From positions 346-64,345 of the forward strand of contig CAYJFX010000001.1 in assembly GCA_964369735.1 (NCBI GenBank): 64,000 bases of DNA, written 5' to 3'. Origin of the DNA: an uncultured Treponemataceae bacterium (GTDB lineage Bacteria > Spirochaetota > Spirochaetia > Treponematales > Treponemataceae). Below, piece by piece: positions 11,578-18,551 of this stretch. The notes beneath the pieces are model-generated. The model did no database searches. It saw only the letters and a list, made by a program, of their open reading frames with translations, and was not told the origin of the DNA. The position numbers and the translations under genes were made by a program. How positions within the stretch are numbered: position 1 is the stretch's first letter; each line of letters opens with the position of its first letter.

Positions 11578-12633
11578 ATGGAATCAAACGAAAGTGTAGA
11601 TTTAGGTAAAAAAGTTTTTTTTCTCAACCCCCCTTTTGATTTTAAGAAAATTATCGTCCCTGTGTTATCTGATAAAGAATATGAAGTATGCGTTATAAAC
11701 TCTTATAAGCATGCAAAAGCAATTCTCCGTGCCCACAAAGACTCTGTATGCTTTGTCTGTATTGATGGTGAAATGCCCATCGACCATTGGTACAATTTTA
11801 TTGTTTCATTTAACGATGATGAGACCTTGTCAACAATCTTCCTAGGAGTAATGTCGGCTCATGCTAGAACGAGCGATAAAAATCACTTTTTACTAAATGC
11901 CTCCATTCCTGCTGGCTTTATTTCTCTTGTTGCGAAGAAAGATGATTTAATTTCCACTATAGAAGGAATTTTGAGAATAAATAATGCAAAAGGCGTTAGA
12001 AAGTATGTAAGGGTAGACTGTGGCTCTGACAAGCTTATTTCTGCACAGTGCATCCTCGCAGGCAGCCAGCATATCTTTCGCATTGAAAACATTAGTTCTG
12101 CAGGGCTTCTTTGTACCGCCCCTACAAATCTTGCCCCCGCAGTTACTGCTAACATGTTATTAAAAGACTTTTTACTCAATTTACGCTCTCAAAAAATACG
12201 ATGCAATACCGTTGTTTTAAAATCTTTTATAAATAATGGCAAACTGTTTATTGTACTTTTATTTACAAAAGGATTACCCTTTAATGCGAAGGCCTCCATT
12301 CAAGCATATATTAGGTTTTTCTTGCAAAACACTATTGAAACAGTTTTAGCAACAACACACCCCGATCAAACAGACTATTCAAAATTACACGAAGCAGCAA
12401 TTGCATCAAACATGAAAGAAGCTTTTCTTATCTCTGTTGATGAAGAAGAAGTTTTATACGCAGAGGATGAGAGCGCTGTTACCTATGCTGACGAGGGAGA
12501 AGAGCACAATATCTCCTCTGTTTCTTCGGCTCTTTTTAGCAATGATGACGAAGAACAATTTTTAAATCAAATGAAATTTTTAGAGGAGAATGACATCGAA
12601 GGAGATGTTCAACTCATTGATGATACAAAATAG
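11578..12633 (+). CDS. PilZ-domain protein with a receiver-like N-terminus and acidic tail
   Basis: PilZ-like elements RKYVRV ... ENISSAGLL (D/NxSxxG) in the middle. The last ~70 aa are rich in D/E. Confidence 0.65.
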   Translation: MESNESVDLGKKVFFLNPPFDFKKIIVPVLSDKEYEVCVINSYKHAKAILRAHKDSVCFVCIDGEMPIDHWYNFIVSFNDDETLSTIFLGVMSAHARTSDKNHFLLNASIPAGFISLVAKKDDLISTIEGILRINNAKGVRKYVRVDCGSDKLISAQCILAGSQHIFRIENISSAGLLCTAPTNLAPAVTANMLLKDFLLNLRSQKIRCNTVVLKSFINNGKLFIVLLFTKGLPFNAKASIQAYIRFFLQNTIETVLATTHPDQTDYSKLHEAAIASNMKEAFLISVDEEEVLYAEDESAVTYADEGEEHNISSVSSALFSNDDEEQFLNQMKFLEENDIEGDVQLIDDTK

Positions 12634-12637
12634 CAAG

Positions 12638-13372
12638 TTATTTGCCCAGTAAATCTCTTACAACCTCTCCTGCTATTAGAAGGCCTGCAACTGACGGCAC
12701 AAACGAGATGCTTGCTGGCGGATTACATTTTATGGGCTCCTCCTTTGAAAATAAAACCTTTACTTTTTTTATGTGGCGAGCCTTTAACTCCCGTCGCATA
12801 ACCCTCGCAAGAGGACAAACACTTGTCTTTTCTATTGTGGTTATTTCAAAAAGAGAAGGATTGAGCTTATTTCCCGTTCCCATAGAGCTAATAATTGGCA
12901 CATCAAAATGCTTTGCTTTTTCAATTAGCAATAATTTTGCACTTACTGTATCTATTGCATCTACAATGTAGTCGCATGTAGAAATTTCCTCATCTAATTG
13001 TCCTGCTGTTTTTAAATCATAAAAAACAGGATATTCTTTTATGCTAACTTTTGGTTGTATATCCAATATTCTTTTTTTTGCGCACTCTGTTTTAAACATC
13101 CCAATTGTCGAGTGTAATGCAAAAAGCTGCCGATTTAAGTTACTGGGGACTATAGTGTCATTGTCCACTATAACGAAAGCACCAACCCCCACTCTAGCTA
13201 GAGCTTCTACAACAAAAGAGCCAACTCCTCCTAGTCCAAAGACGGCAATCTTTTTTGAGCTCAACTCTTTTACTTTTGTAATGCCTAGAAGTTTTTCTGT
13301 CCTGCTAAACTGATCCTCTGTTGTTGCAATCGGTGTATTATCTTGTATTGTAATGGTTTCTCTGTTTTTCAT
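12638..13372 (-). CDS. tcdA: tRNA threonylcarbamoyladenosine dehydratase (ThiF/MoeB-like E1 fold)
   Basis: FGLGGVGSFVVEALARVGVG..IVDNDTIVPSNLNRQ nucleotide-binding motif. The 244-aa size is typical of TcdA/CsdL. Confidence 0.85.
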   Translation of the reverse strand: MKNRETITIQDNTPIATTEDQFSRTEKLLGITKVKELSSKKIAVFGLGGVGSFVVEALARVGVGAFVIVDNDTIVPSNLNRQLFALHSTIGMFKTECAKKRILDIQPKVSIKEYPVFYDLKTAGQLDEEISTCDYIVDAIDTVSAKLLLIEKAKHFDVPIISSMGTGNKLNPSLFEITTIEKTSVCPLARVMRRELKARHIKKVKVLFSKEEPIKCNPPASISFVPSVAGLLIAGEVVRDLLGK

Positions 13373-13414
13373 AGTTGCTAGCCTTAATTAAAAAAATAAA
13401 ATTTATATTTTCCT

Positions 13415-13434
13415 TGTGGAAAACTTGTGTAAAA
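13415..13434 (-). promoter_or_regulatory. Tandem pair of DnaA-box-like 9-mers
   Basis: TGTGGAAAA (13415-13423) and TGTGTAAAA (13426-13434). Their complements TTTTCCACA and TTTTACACA both fit TTWTNCACA. Spacing is 11 bp. Confidence 0.5.
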
Positions 13435-13590
13435 CATCTTAATGGTTTGCTGCTCGTTTGCATATTTAATATGATTTCATCTCTCCATCCTGTTTATAGA
13501 AAAAAAATCTCTTTTTCTTCTATAAATTAAAATACAATCATAGTATAATAAATCAATTTTTTTTAAGTCATTTTAAAAAAATTTTATGAT

Positions 13591-13639
13591 TTTTGCACCA
13601 AACCTTCTAAAATCCAACAGAAATGTCTAATTTTGCACA
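13591..13639 (+). promoter_or_regulatory. Two further DnaA-box-like 9-mers in the opposite orientation
   Basis: TTTTGCACC at 13591-13599 has one mismatch. TTTTGCACA at 13631-13639 is a perfect fit to TTWTNCACA. Both sit inside a longer repeat, TTTTGCAC[C/A]AAACC. Confidence 0.45.
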
Positions 13640-13836
13640 AAACCAAGGTTTTTTTGCTTGTTTTTTAGGTTATTAATAAAAAAAACCTTCCCCTTTTTTA
13701 AAAAGAAAAGGACACTCAAAAAACAGCATTTCGAAAAAAGGCTTATTTTTCTTTTTTTATAAAAGGAATACCTAAACATAAGTATAGCAAAAAAATAAAT
13801 ATTCTTCCAGTACCTCCAAATCACCTCCTCCCGCTC

Positions 13837-13856
13837 TGTGGAAAACTTGTGGAAAA
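13837..13856 (-). promoter_or_regulatory. Tandem pair of DnaA-box-like 9-mers, overlapping a possible glgX -35 element
   Basis: TGTGGAAAA at 13837-13845 and at 13848-13856, 11 bp apart. TTGTGG (13847-13852), a 17-nt spacer and TATAAA (13870-13875) could form a glgX promoter. Confidence 0.5.
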
Positions 13857-13915
13857 AATAAAACAGCTCTATAAAAGGTGTAACTTTTTTTATCTTTCTA
13901 TGTTATACTATTGTA

Positions 13916-16057
13916 ATGGCTACATTTAAAATTTCTTGTGGAACACCTATGCCCTATGGTTCAAGCATAAAGAACGGTGGTGTCAATTTTAGTATTTTTT
14001 CTCGAAACGGGACTTCCGTGAAAATTTTGCTATTTGAAAAAGAAGAAGATACCGTACCCTTTTTTTCGTATACGCTTGACCCTATAGTAAATAGAACTGG
14101 TGATGTTTGGCACATCCATATTGAAGGGGCAAAAGCTGGCACTCTTTATGTATATTCTGTCGAGGGGCCTTTTGCTCCTGAAAAAGGCCATCGGTTTAAC
14201 AAAGACTCCTTTCTTTTAGATCCTTATGCTAAGGCAATAACCTGCTCTTCCCTATTTAAATATATCCAAAGCAAAGAAGCTGTTTCGCCAGCGAAAGCAA
14301 GCCTTTTGAAAAAGGCTACTGAAAAAGAAGCGTTTCCGAAGGGAGTTGTTATTGACGACACAGAATTTAACTGGCAAGGTGATAAACCGCTCAACTACCC
14401 CCTTCGAAAAAGTATTCTTTATGAAACACATTTAAAGGGCTTTACCCAAAGCCCTTCGTCTGGCGTAAAAAACAAGGGAACCTATAAAGGTCTTATAGAA
14501 AAAATTCCATATTTTAAAGAGCTTGGTATAACAAGCATAGAGTTATTGCCCATCCAAGAATTTGATGAACATGAAAACTCAAACTCAAATCCTAAAACAG
14601 GAAAGGCTCTAACAAACTACTGGGGATACAGCACCATGTCCTTTTTTGCACCAAAAGCGTCTTATGCCTCTAATAAAAATCCAGGCCAGTGCGTTAATGA
14701 GTTTAAGGAAATGGTTAGAGAAATGCACAAAAATGGTCTTGAAGTTATCCTTGATATTGTTTTTAACCATACGGCAGAAGGGAATGAGAATGGCCCCACC
14801 ATTAATTTTAAAGGGTTTGATAATTCCATATATTATATGCTTGAGGATAACCAAAAGCAATACTATAAAAATTATTCTGGCTGTGGAAACACGCTAAACT
14901 GCAACCACCCTGTTGTAAGAACATTTATAATTGACTGTTTACGATACTGGGTATGTGAAATGCATGTCGATGGATTCCGCTTTGACTTAGGTTCAATTTT
15001 AGGACGGGACCAACATGGAAACCTTATGGAAAACCCTCCAATGTTAGAAAGAATAGCTGAAGAGCCAGTTTTACGAAACACAAAAATTATTGCAGAAGCA
15101 TGGGATGCGGGAGGAGCATATCAAGTTGGTTGGTTCCCCGGAGGACGCTGGGCAGAATGGAATGACCGCTACAGGGATGATATTCGATCTTTTTGGAGAG
15201 GGGATGCAAATTACACAAGCAGTGCAGCGACTAGACTTTCTGGAAGCTCTGATTTATACTTGCGTGATGGCAGAAAACCTTTTCACTCAATTAACTTTTT
15301 AACAAGTCACGACGGGTTTACTCTAAACGACTTAGTCAGCTATAACACAAAGCACAACGAAGAAAATGGTGAAGAGAACAGAGATGGGTCAGATCACAAC
15401 ATTAGTAGTAATTATGGGTATGAAGGCCCCACAGAAAACAAAGACATAGAAGCTCATCGCATGCAGCAAATAAAAAACTTTCTCTTAACTCTTTTTTTAT
15501 CGCAAGGAACCCCCATGCTCCTTGCTGGAGATGAATTTCGAAATACTCAAAACGGCAACAACAACTCCTACTGCCAAGACAATGAAATTTCTTGGATTGA
15601 TTGGACAAAAAAGGATCGCTACTCTGAGATTTTTCTTTTTGCACGGAAAGCCATTGCCTTTCGTTTGCATCATCCAGCTTTTTGTCGACCAGAGTTTTTT
15701 GTAGGCCAAGACCTTTCTTATAACAGCCTTCTTGATATAACCTGGTTTGGAGAAAATGGAGATATCATTGACTGGTCAAAGGAAAACAGAATACTTGCCT
15801 GCCGCATGGATGGTAGCCGAGCAGAAATATTTAGCGACCGAGACGACAACGACTTTTATCTTATGTTAAATTCTTCAAAAGAGGATATCCCGGTAAGAAT
15901 TTGCCAGCCTACATCTGAAAAAAAATGGTTTAGGGCTATAGACACTTCTTTCCCTACGCCAAAAGATTTTCTAAGCCCTGGCGAAGAAGATGTTGTAAAT
16001 TCGAATGAAGCTTACATGCTGCGATCCCATAGCATGGTTGTTTTATTGAGTAAATAA
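13916..16057 (+). CDS. glgX: Glycogen debranching enzyme (GH13)
   Basis: GH13 conserved regions DIVFNHT, GFRFDLGS, EAWD and FLTSHDGFTL, with an N-terminal CBM48-like segment. Confidence 0.92.
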   Translation: MATFKISCGTPMPYGSSIKNGGVNFSIFSRNGTSVKILLFEKEEDTVPFFSYTLDPIVNRTGDVWHIHIEGAKAGTLYVYSVEGPFAPEKGHRFNKDSFLLDPYAKAITCSSLFKYIQSKEAVSPAKASLLKKATEKEAFPKGVVIDDTEFNWQGDKPLNYPLRKSILYETHLKGFTQSPSSGVKNKGTYKGLIEKIPYFKELGITSIELLPIQEFDEHENSNSNPKTGKALTNYWGYSTMSFFAPKASYASNKNPGQCVNEFKEMVREMHKNGLEVILDIVFNHTAEGNENGPTINFKGFDNSIYYMLEDNQKQYYKNYSGCGNTLNCNHPVVRTFIIDCLRYWVCEMHVDGFRFDLGSILGRDQHGNLMENPPMLERIAEEPVLRNTKIIAEAWDAGGAYQVGWFPGGRWAEWNDRYRDDIRSFWRGDANYTSSAATRLSGSSDLYLRDGRKPFHSINFLTSHDGFTLNDLVSYNTKHNEENGEENRDGSDHNISSNYGYEGPTENKDIEAHRMQQIKNFLLTLFLSQGTPMLLAGDEFRNTQNGNNNSYCQDNEISWIDWTKKDRYSEIFLFARKAIAFRLHHPAFCRPEFFVGQDLSYNSLLDITWFGENGDIIDWSKENRILACRMDGSRAEIFSDRDDNDFYLMLNSSKEDIPVRICQPTSEKKWFRAIDTSFPTPKDFLSPGEEDVVNSNEAYMLRSHSMVVLLSK

Positions 16058-16106: not shown

Positions 16107-18551
16107 ATGGTTTTTGATTCTAATATGTTTAAAGAACGAATTAAAGCTCGCCTAAAGCGACAATATGGCAAAGAAATTGATACCGCAACAATCAGGCAGA
16201 TATATGATGCGAGCGCTGCTTCTATCCAAGAAATGACAATGGACAACTGGATGAAAACTCGAAGCGCACATGAAAAAAAAGATGTTCGCTCAGTTTATTA
16301 TTTTTCTGCAGAATTTTTAATGGGTCGAGCTTTGGGAAATAACCTCATCAACACATTATTAAAAGACAATGTAATTTCAGCTTTGCAAGAACTTGGGATT
16401 GATTATAATATTATTGAAGACCACGAACCAGATGCAGCTCTTGGAAATGGAGGGCTTGGTCGGCTTGCTGCATGTTTCTTAGATTCTCTTTCTACTTTAA
16501 ACTATCCTGCTTATGGCTATGGAATTAGATATGAATATGGAATGTTTGAGCAGCACATTGAAAATGGGTTTCAAGTTGAATACCCCGATAACTGGCTTCG
16601 CCATAGAGATCCTTGGCAAATAAAGCGAAGTGATTTGTCTGTTCAAGTAAAACTTGGTGGCCGTGTTGAAGTTCAAAAAGACTCAGCTGGTGAAAACAAA
16701 TTTTCAGTAGAGGATGCAGAAATAATAACAGCCGTTCCATATGATACACCAATAGTTGGGTATGACACAAATACCATAAACACACTACGTCTATGGAGAG
16801 CAACATCACCAAATGGCTTTGATCTTCAACTTTTTAATGACATGCACTATAATCGCGCGGTTGAAAGAAAGAATGCAGCTGAAAACATATCGAGAGTGCT
16901 TTATCCAAATGACTCTGGCTCATCTGGAAAAACGTTGCGTTTAAAACAACAATATTTTTTCTGTTCTGCAAGCTTACAAGACCTTGTTCGAAAGTATACT
17001 TGCTCATATGGTACAGATTTTTCACACTTTTCAAAGTATCATGTGATTCAGCTAAATGACACTCACCCAGTTGTTGCAATTCCTGAATTAATGAGAATAT
17101 TAATGGATGATTACTCTATAGGATGGGATGAGTCTTGGAAAATTGTTACAGAAACATTTGCCTACACAAATCACACTATCTTAGCAGAAGCCTTAGAAAA
17201 GTGGCCTATAGATATTTTCCAAGCCCTTCTTCCGCGCATATATCAAATTATTGATGAGATAAACAGGCGCTTTACATTACTCTTGGTTGAAAAATTTCCA
17301 AACAATTATGCATGCCACAACCGCATGAGCATTATTGCCAATGGAATGATTCACATGGCATGGCTTGCAATACACACCTGCTTTAGTGTAAATGGCGTTG
17401 CCGCCTTGCATACGCAAATCCTTATAGATAGCGAGCTCAAGGACTGGGCTGAATTATACCCGAATAAATTTAACAATAAAACAAATGGCGTTACGCAAAG
17501 ACGATGGCTTTTAAGCGCAAACCCTCTTTTGTCAGATTTTATAACAAAGCGAATCGGCAATGGGTGGCAAAAAGATTTTTCATTGTTAAAAGGATTAGAA
17601 AAATATGCAGAAGATGAAGCATCTTTAAATGAATTAATGGATATCAAAAAAACAAACAAAAAAGCCTTTGCAAAATGGCTCATGGAAACACAAAATGAGT
17701 TTGTAGACCCAGATTCAATTTTTGATACCCAAATAAAGCGTCTCCATGAATATAAAAGACAACTTTTAAATATACTTCACATTATCTATTTATATAATAA
17801 AATAAGAGAGAACCCTGACTACAACCCTCCTGCGCGCACCTTCCTTTTTGGTGCGAAGGCAGCCTCTGGGTATCGCAGAGCTAAATCAATAATTAAGCTT
17901 ATAACTTCTATAGCCGATAAAATAAACAAAGACCCTCTTGTTAGGGGAAAGCTTCGAGTTGTCTTTATTCCAAATTATAGAGTAACTGCAGCTGAAAAAA
18001 TATTCCCCGCCTCAGATGTATCAGAGCAAATTTCAACTGCAGGAAAAGAAGCTTCTGGAACAGGGAATATGAAGTTTATGATAAATGGAGCTCTAACACT
18101 TGGAACACTAGATGGAGCAAATATTGAAATTGTTGAAGAGGCAGGTGAAGAGAATGCCTTTATATTTGGTTTAACTGCTCACGAAATTGCAACTATCGAA
18201 AAGGAACATAGTTATAACCCTCAACAATACATTCAAAGAAGCCCAGAACTAGCAAAGGTTTTGAATCAGCTTATTGATGGGACATTTGATTCGTCTGAAG
18301 GGTTGTTTAGAGAATTATATGATTCGTTGGTATATGGTGTTGAGGGCCAACGCCCTGATGTTTACTATGTGTTAGCTGACTTTGATGAATATTGTAATGC
18401 ACAAGAGAAAGTTTCAGAAGCATATATTGATAGGCTAGGCTGGGCAAAGAAAGTATTATTAAACATAGCCCGCTCAGGCAAGTTTTCATCAGACAGAACC
18501 ATTGAAGATTACGTAACAGATATTTGGAAATTAAATAAAATTGAAGTATAA
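16107..18551 (+). CDS. glgP: Glycogen/maltodextrin phosphorylase (GT35)
   Basis: PLP-site block EASGTGNMKFMINGALTLGTLDGANIEI and the 814-aa length. Confidence 0.95.
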   Translation: MVFDSNMFKERIKARLKRQYGKEIDTATIRQIYDASAASIQEMTMDNWMKTRSAHEKKDVRSVYYFSAEFLMGRALGNNLINTLLKDNVISALQELGIDYNIIEDHEPDAALGNGGLGRLAACFLDSLSTLNYPAYGYGIRYEYGMFEQHIENGFQVEYPDNWLRHRDPWQIKRSDLSVQVKLGGRVEVQKDSAGENKFSVEDAEIITAVPYDTPIVGYDTNTINTLRLWRATSPNGFDLQLFNDMHYNRAVERKNAAENISRVLYPNDSGSSGKTLRLKQQYFFCSASLQDLVRKYTCSYGTDFSHFSKYHVIQLNDTHPVVAIPELMRILMDDYSIGWDESWKIVTETFAYTNHTILAEALEKWPIDIFQALLPRIYQIIDEINRRFTLLLVEKFPNNYACHNRMSIIANGMIHMAWLAIHTCFSVNGVAALHTQILIDSELKDWAELYPNKFNNKTNGVTQRRWLLSANPLLSDFITKRIGNGWQKDFSLLKGLEKYAEDEASLNELMDIKKTNKKAFAKWLMETQNEFVDPDSIFDTQIKRLHEYKRQLLNILHIIYLYNKIRENPDYNPPARTFLFGAKAASGYRRAKSIIKLITSIADKINKDPLVRGKLRVVFIPNYRVTAAEKIFPASDVSEQISTAGKEASGTGNMKFMINGALTLGTLDGANIEIVEEAGEENAFIFGLTAHEIATIEKEHSYNPQQYIQRSPELAKVLNQLIDGTFDSSEGLFRELYDSLVYGVEGQRPDVYYVLADFDEYCNAQEKVSEAYIDRLGWAKKVLLNIARSGKFSSDRTIEDYVTDIWKLNKIEV

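Follow-up and report, generated by a model that had tools for sequence, protein, structure and literature searches.

In Escherichia coli, the datA locus stimulates the hydrolysis of DnaA-ATP, an activity that requires an IHF site located between its DnaA boxes, and the core of DARS contains three closely set boxes, including oppositely oriented ones. Within E. coli oriC, the arrays R5M-tau2-I1-I2 and C3-C2-I3-C1 are made of 9-mers in the same orientation, 2 bp apart, to which DnaA-ATP binds cooperatively. DnaA boxes are also found within transcription units of this bacterium, in guaB and asnC/mioC, where they act as transcription blocks. In Bacillus subtilis, six clusters of boxes outside the origin, called DBCs, regulate neighboring genes and delay initiation; sda is regulated upward and ywlC, yydA, and dnaA downward (PMC3245932). 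Among spirochaetes, DnaA of Borrelia burgdorferi is a transcription factor that binds the 5' UTR of dnaX-ebfC (PMC9879097). The control of replication initiation in this phylum is almost unstudied, and a full-text literature search retrieved no paper that describes clusters of DnaA boxes outside the origin in Treponema. We describe here such a cluster, which with its four conserved 9-mers offers a compact target.

The 64,000-nt stretch analyzed (hereafter the window) corresponds to positions 346-64345 of contig C1 in a MAG of 2.03 Mb, 176 contigs, and 78% completeness, the closest named relatives of which are uncultured Treponemataceae. Between a tcdA-like gene and glgX lies a gap of 543 bp with a G+C content of 25.8%. 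According to the ORF map it is the longest gap of the window, as the first-pass annotation of this DNA had noted, the next ones being about 350 bp long. We aligned the locus with that of eight relatives of the same genus (nine genomes in total) and calculated identity for each alignment column. The genes and boxes are the following:

12638..13372, minus strand: tcdA-like gene of the ThiF family (Pfam PF00899, E = 1.8e-37), downstream of the DnaA-box module
13415..13434, minus strand: left tandem pair of DnaA boxes, TTTTACACA-AG-TTTTCCACA on that strand, 42 bp upstream of the tcdA ATG; 93% column identity in the nine genomes
13435..13772, no strand: AT-rich spacer; 56% column identity, with a pair-to-pair length of 366-431 bp in the genus
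13631..13639, plus strand: lone relaxed DnaA box TTTTGCACA, an exact consensus match
13837..13856, minus strand: right tandem pair of DnaA boxes, TTTTCCACA-AG-TTTTCCACA on that strand; 91% column identity
13916..18551, plus strand: glgX (13916-16057) and glgP (16107-18551), assigned by Pfam, divergent from the module

An Rfam scan of positions 12500-14500 (E <= 1) gave a chance match to U4 as its sole match, and the gap is therefore a spacer without a known RNA family.

Five exact matches to the relaxed consensus TTWTNCACA are present in the gap, four on the minus strand (13415-23, 13426-34, 13837-45, and 13848-56) and one on the plus strand (13631-39), and a sixth site at 13591-99, which reads TTTTGCACC, carries one mismatch. 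The minus-strand sites are arranged as two head-to-tail pairs in which the period is 11 bp, the 9-mers being 2 bp apart, and both pairs share the repeat TGTGGAAAACTTGTG, whose copies are separated by 422 bp. All these sites, with their coordinates and arrangement, had been correctly listed in the first-pass annotation. The lone plus-strand box is clearly common only to the closest relative (G007), and its one-mismatch copy sits within a 14-nt direct repeat. Yet another copy, TTTCTTGTGGAACACCTATG, is partial, shows 80% identity to the left one, and is located in codons 6-12 of glgX (13932-13951), making it the third. When the 543 bp were shuffled 20,000 times with dinucleotides preserved, we counted a mean of 0.107 boxes and a maximum of 3, compared with the 5 observed, and none of the shuffles contained 5 boxes or any tandem pair; a rough estimate made previously from composition was well under one chance box. 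With a genome-wide density of 0.218 boxes per kb, the tcdA-glgX cluster is the densest in the draft. The 20-nt tandem pair TGTGNAWAANNTGTGNAWAA has two exact copies in the draft, both in this gap; as the draft is 78% complete, this uniqueness holds for its assembled part. We rejected the possibility that the pairs belong to a dispersed repeat, given these two exact copies and the 31 matches with two mismatches or fewer, against 26 for the reversed control.

The two pairs are also conserved in the relatives, with 91-93% column identity compared with 55-59% in the flanking spacers. Their consensus in the genus is CTTGTGGAWAACTTGTGNAWAA, and variation occurs at W3 and N5 of TTWTNCACA; five relatives carry the perfect TGTGGATAA (that is, TTATCCACA). 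The same 11-bp tandem pair is present in the dnaA-dnaN spacer of two Treponemataceae genomes (G072 and G089), and the spacer of Treponema sp. HNW contains the same box variants, flanked by TTGTG. Among 151 Treponemataceae genomes, the exact tandem pair gave 141 matches, distributed over 84 genomes and 15 of the 18 genera, and its reversed control gave 2. The C-terminus of the MAG's own DnaA retains the canonical domain-IV motifs FARQ...GNKDHTTVMH, in which DHTTV is the DNA-contact motif. Taken together, the conservation of the sites, their pattern of variation, their presence at dnaA-dnaN, the family-wide excess, and the canonical DnaA strongly support the view that the window contains real, selected DnaA boxes.

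Another protein might nonetheless use these repeats as its operator, for instance a response regulator of the OmpR/PhoB type controlling glgXP and/or tcdA. Direct repeats of 11 bp are typical of winged-helix response regulators, and the minus-strand sequence TCCACA-N5-TCCACA of the window resembles the Bacillus PhoP repeats TT(A/T/C)ACA-N5. The linker (CT/CC/GT) is conserved beyond what DnaA alone would require, and work on Borrelia burgdorferi suggests that the specificity of spirochaete DnaA may be atypical (PMC9879097). Against this, the variation fits the DnaA consensus at W3 and N5 and many orthologues have a perfect TTATCCACA, the tandem pair recurs in dnaA-dnaN spacers, its spread over 15 of the 18 genera, among genes of unrelated function, fits a universal factor, and the base-contact residues of DnaA are canonical. 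The OmpR/PhoB-type site proposed in the first-pass annotation holds as far as the 11-bp repeats upstream of a predicted promoter are concerned; there is neither a coherent regulon nor, according to the Pfam annotation of the neighbors, a DNA-binding regulator gene adjacent to the module. We therefore regard an operator of this kind as improbable.

The earlier suggestion of a replication origin deserves closer scrutiny, since the cluster is the densest in the draft and the spacer between its two arrays is AT-rich, as would be expected of box arrays bracketing an unwinding element in a chromosomal or secondary origin. The dnaA gene of the MAG, absent from the window as already noted, is located on contig C155. 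On this contig (3161 bp) are a dnaA gene whose sequence is broken by a short run of undetermined bases (X residues in the translation), for which the genome search showed one internal TAA, and a single relaxed box downstream of it, the contig ending 120 bp further. As the dnaA contig is such a fragment with one relaxed box, the true dnaA-dnaN origin is probably unassembled. The polarity of replication can be read from GC3 skew, which in this MAG is free of coding-strand bias (t = -0.002) and bimodal among contigs. The 12 genes on the left of the element have a GC3 skew of -0.176+/-0.034 and the 10 genes in the first 15 kb on its right one of -0.134+/-0.031; the cumulative curve declines monotonically over the whole 64 kb, so that the element does not coincide with a skew minimum. 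Orientation-corrected whole-gene skew agrees with GC3 and shows the same polarity on both sides. In the complete HNW genome, the cumulative skew minimum is at dnaA whether raw, orientation-corrected, or GC3 skew is used; this result comes from a contiguous 540-kb analysis, which superseded ambiguous raw skew samples of 10 kb. The homologous two-pair module of HNW is located 135 kb from dnaA-dnaN.

The dnaA-dnaN spacers also have an organization of their own. In HNW the spacer contains four relaxed boxes together with a GC patch and a run of TAT/TAC trinucleotides, and the spacers of G072 and G089 likewise combine boxes, GC patch, and TAT/TAC run. By inspection of the sequence, neither pair of the window is adjoined by a DnaA-trio-like TAN trinucleotide run. 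The window does have a DnaA-box cluster, with five exact relaxed boxes of which four are conserved, but the boxes are not accompanied by an unwinding module: the GC-richer patch described at 13821-35 is present and is not kept in relatives, the AT-rich core is not conserved either, and the spacer corresponds to pepF coding DNA in other genera. The order of boxes, GC cluster, and unwinding element previously read in this region is therefore not real. Skew does not change sign across the element, a DnaA-trio or basal unwinding layout is lacking, and dnaA is elsewhere; the tcdA-glgX element is thus not oriC, and an origin of any other kind, chromosomal or secondary, is extremely unlikely at this position. 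Box clusters and AT-richness alone are an unsafe basis for calling origins.

The comparison with other genera accounts for the unusual composition of the gap. In HNW and OMZ 840, the gene order is tcdA<-pepF<-[pair]->glgX, pepF being an M3-family oligopeptidase gene, and a second pair is located within pepF codons ~126-132. The left pair of the window is orthologous to this embedded pair, and the right pair has orthologues upstream of pepF in HNW, OMZ 840, G094, G047, and G022. The module at the 5' end of pepF is also found in G094, G047, G082, G084, G067, G078, and G053, with or without glgX alongside, indicating that it travels with pepF-tcdA and not with glgX. In seven pepF orthologues sharing 50-95% amino acid identity, the codons TAC ACA AGT/ACT TTT/TAT CCA CA are fixed at their four-fold sites (ACA and CCA), and the flanking codons vary freely. 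Amino acid replacements among F, L, and Y within the boxes preserve TTWT. The fixed four-fold sites and TTWT-preserving replacements show selection on the DNA itself.

An intermediate arrangement is found in a genome of another genus (G022). There, an open pepF stump of 134 codons, homologous to PepF residues 10-135 (blastp 2e-13), ends at the internal pair and is directly followed by the tcdA ATG. The stop codon of the stump (L136:5003-5407) overlaps the tcdA start, ATGAAATCTGA. This genome thus captures pepF in the course of its loss, and the stump may still be translated, in coupling with tcdA. The arrangement in the window matches: tcdA is followed by a pair, then by about 420 bp, then by a second pair. 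When PepF of HNW and OMZ 840 and the G022 stump were searched by tblastn in the spacer of the window and those of its genus relatives, only the box pair itself was retrieved. It is thus synteny that points to a pepF remnant, since similarity to PepF is no longer detected, and the window spacer is most likely the decayed 5' end of pepF together with leader or former pepF-glgX intergenic DNA, not an unwinding element. In the scenario that we propose, the ancestral module would have been at the 5' end of a pepF-tcdA operon, with one pair upstream of the pepF promoter and the second ~380 bp inside the gene. A deletion in the lineage of the window genome would have removed pepF just past the internal pair, and the stump would then have decayed to AT-rich noncoding DNA, both pairs and the leftward promoter block being selectively kept. 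A decayed stump of this kind would explain why the gap was singled out as the longest and most AT-rich one. It would also make this odd "intergenic" DNA a gene remnant held in place by the signals embedded in it. The retention of the pairs after pepF loss and the dual-coded pair of pepF provide unusually clean comparative evidence of selection.

Two divergent extended -10 promoter-like elements flank the right pair. With the associated conserved blocks, the predicted promoter features are:

13773..13797, minus strand: conserved block reading TTTTTTTGCTATACTTATGTTTAGG on that strand, with 87% column identity, containing the extended -10-like TGCTATACT (13789->13781)
13878..13890, plus strand: conserved GTGTAACTTTTTT block, 87% column identity, at about -38 to -26 of the predicted glgX promoter
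13901..13909, plus strand: extended -10 TGTTATACT of glgX, 85% column identity, its last base 6 nt before the ATG at 13916

We interpret block 13773..13797 as a leftward promoter with a putative TSS near 13774, the former pepF promoter, which would now feed tcdA. The tcdA transcript would then presumably begin with a long 5' leader comprising spacer 13435..13772. On the other side, the distance from TGTTATACT to the ATG, 6 nt, does not vary among the nine genomes, and the same layout is found in HNW and OMZ 840. The glgX start lacks a Shine-Dalgarno sequence (window 13901-13918; the same is true at L074:3985-4003 and L020:3985-4003). Since the -10 element ends 6 nt before the ATG, the glgX-glgP mRNA is predicted to be leaderless. 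A consensus sigma-70 scan misses these extended -10 elements, and its matches are no more frequent than in shuffles. Two other candidates on the minus strand were discarded. A small ORF of about 50 codons downstream of the conserved block is not kept in G007, and a terminator-like hairpin at 13711-13686 was taken as a chance structure because its pairing is not kept in that genome either.

The position of the right pair relative to these elements bears on its possible role in transcription. Its center is at about -72 from the predicted leftward TSS and about -70 from the predicted glgX TSS. The distance between the pair and the leftward -10-like block is 47 nt in eight of the nine genomes and 46 nt in the remaining one, and this fixed spacing argues for a local role in cis. 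The distance to the glgX -10 varies from 46 to 52 nt across the genus, and the near edge of the pair is ~84 nt from the predicted glgX TSS in HNW and ~107 nt in OMZ 840. The distance to the putative -10 of pepF also differs between genera. These variable distances make activation by strict contact with RNA polymerase doubtful and, together with the similar modules found in unrelated contexts, cast doubt on a role restricted to the promoter of a specific gene.

Two-pair modules indeed occur elsewhere. In a second type, the pairs are ~160-245 bp apart, some loci having one exact pair only, and the module is flanked by a STAS-domain/zinc-ribbon gene on one side and by two genes of unknown function on the other. 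This type was identified in HNW at 769 kb (L105:3948-4185, 768.9 kb) and in many genomes of another Treponemataceae genus (loci of this type are L129-L133, L142, L146, L148, and L153). Other two-pair modules are located within the 3' end of a transglutaminase/TPR gene in G014, G128, G132, and G062. This gene (1286 aa) contains up to four 11-bp-phased box-like 9-mers (L106:14253-15004 in G014; L138, L139, and L147), and the arrays are kept although the host proteins are only 37% identical; in G014 and G102 the array is 11 kb from dnaA. Genomes contain one to three modules. That such modules turn up in unrelated contexts speaks for a function of DnaA at chromosome level, besides any local one.

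Box-rich sequences of a different kind were also observed in the draft. The second densest cluster (G000:C83:620-1220) consists of three tandem units of ~190 bp upstream of a thioredoxin gene, each with a bidirectional-terminator-like hairpin, CCCTTGTACAACGTACAAGGG, followed by GGAGGAGTGTAGTGTGGATAACAATTG with a perfect DnaA box. The 20-mer TCTGTGTAATCTGTGGATAA occurs on at least four contigs (C3:26066, C3:32004, C13:1737, C99:289, and C161:1314), one copy ending in GGAAAA, and could be part of a mobile element or dispersed repeat with a DnaA-box-like end.

The distribution of the modules raises the question of whether the window locus is a pure sink or inactivation site for DnaA, like datA or a DBC, which would tune initiation, play no role in the expression of its neighbors, and lie beside promoters by coincidence. 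Modules recur in three unrelated contexts (the 5' end of pepF, the STAS-domain gene, and the 3' end of the transglutaminase/TPR gene). Conservation extends most widely for the pair within coding sequence, not for the promoter-proximal one; the module outlived pepF, and its distances to promoters differ between genera. In complete genomes, modules are located from 11 kb to ~770 kb from dnaA, several being origin-proximal as are the B. subtilis DBCs (PMC3245932). Nevertheless, a module has only four conserved boxes, a genome has one to three modules, the 47-nt spacing to the leftward -10-like block is fixed in the genus, and no IHF-type site was recognized: none resembling WATCAANNNNTTR was seen by eye in 13773-13797, although the specificity of the spirochaete HU/IHF homologue may differ. 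The B. subtilis DBCs, moreover, do both jobs, which makes a "pure" sink hard to sustain. We consider an exclusively titrating locus rather unlikely. A slightly broader proposal, to which we give only tentative credit, is that the two-pair modules of Treponemataceae are loci dedicated to the control of replication through the buffering or inactivation of DnaA, a spirochaete counterpart of datA and DBCs whose value would be sufficient to constrain synonymous sites and amino acid choice and to outlive a host gene.

The reading that we favor, and hold to be probable, is that the locus is an extra-origin cluster of the B. subtilis DBC kind, where DnaA would bind cooperatively to two pairs coupled to the leftward tcdA promoter, and which would probably also act as a DnaA sink. 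It has several consensus boxes clustered outside oriC, and these are conserved beyond the neutral background. DnaA would occupy the right pair and the left pair, the latter 42 bp upstream of tcdA, within the presumed leader. Through upstream contact, looping, or a roadblock, the transcription of tcdA, and possibly of glgXP, would be coupled to the level or nucleotide state of DnaA, and the module would in addition serve as a sink as in B. subtilis. A weakness of the sink component is that four conserved boxes are few beside known titration loci. Among the functions listed in the first-pass annotation, DnaA titration and/or control of tcdA is supported by a selected, non-origin module that follows pepF-tcdA rather than glgX. 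A DARS-like site does not fit, as all four conserved boxes have the same orientation and form two head-to-tail pairs 422 bp apart.

Like datA, which lowers the initiation potential of E. coli, the locus is a chromosomal DnaA-box cluster outside the origin. Its pairs resemble the arrays of E. coli oriC by their single orientation and 2-bp separation; unlike these arrays, which are in the origin next to the DUE, the module is embedded in one replichore and shows no unwinding signature. As in guaB, asnC/mioC, and Borrelia dnaX-ebfC, the left pair is downstream of a predicted promoter, in presumably transcribed DNA. It differs from these cases in being dual-coded with the PepF motif F/L-Y-T-S/T-F/Y-P-Q and in its retention past the loss of the gene. 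The closest parallel is with the B. subtilis DBCs. Unlike them, the window cluster has four conserved boxes organized as two strict 11-bp pairs ~400-500 bp apart, one of which was originally in coding sequence, and it belongs to a different phylum, Spirochaetota. Like them, its boxes are clustered outside oriC, conserved in relatives, and next to predicted promoters. In B. subtilis, genes for tRNA modification lie beside several of the DBCs: ywlC (tsaC), gcp (tsaD), and thdF (mnmE). The window module flanks tcdA, whose product we take to act on t6A, a parallel that we offer as a lead. If DnaA regulates tcdA, the link between DnaA and genes of the tRNA t6A pathway in B. subtilis would extend to a distant phylum.
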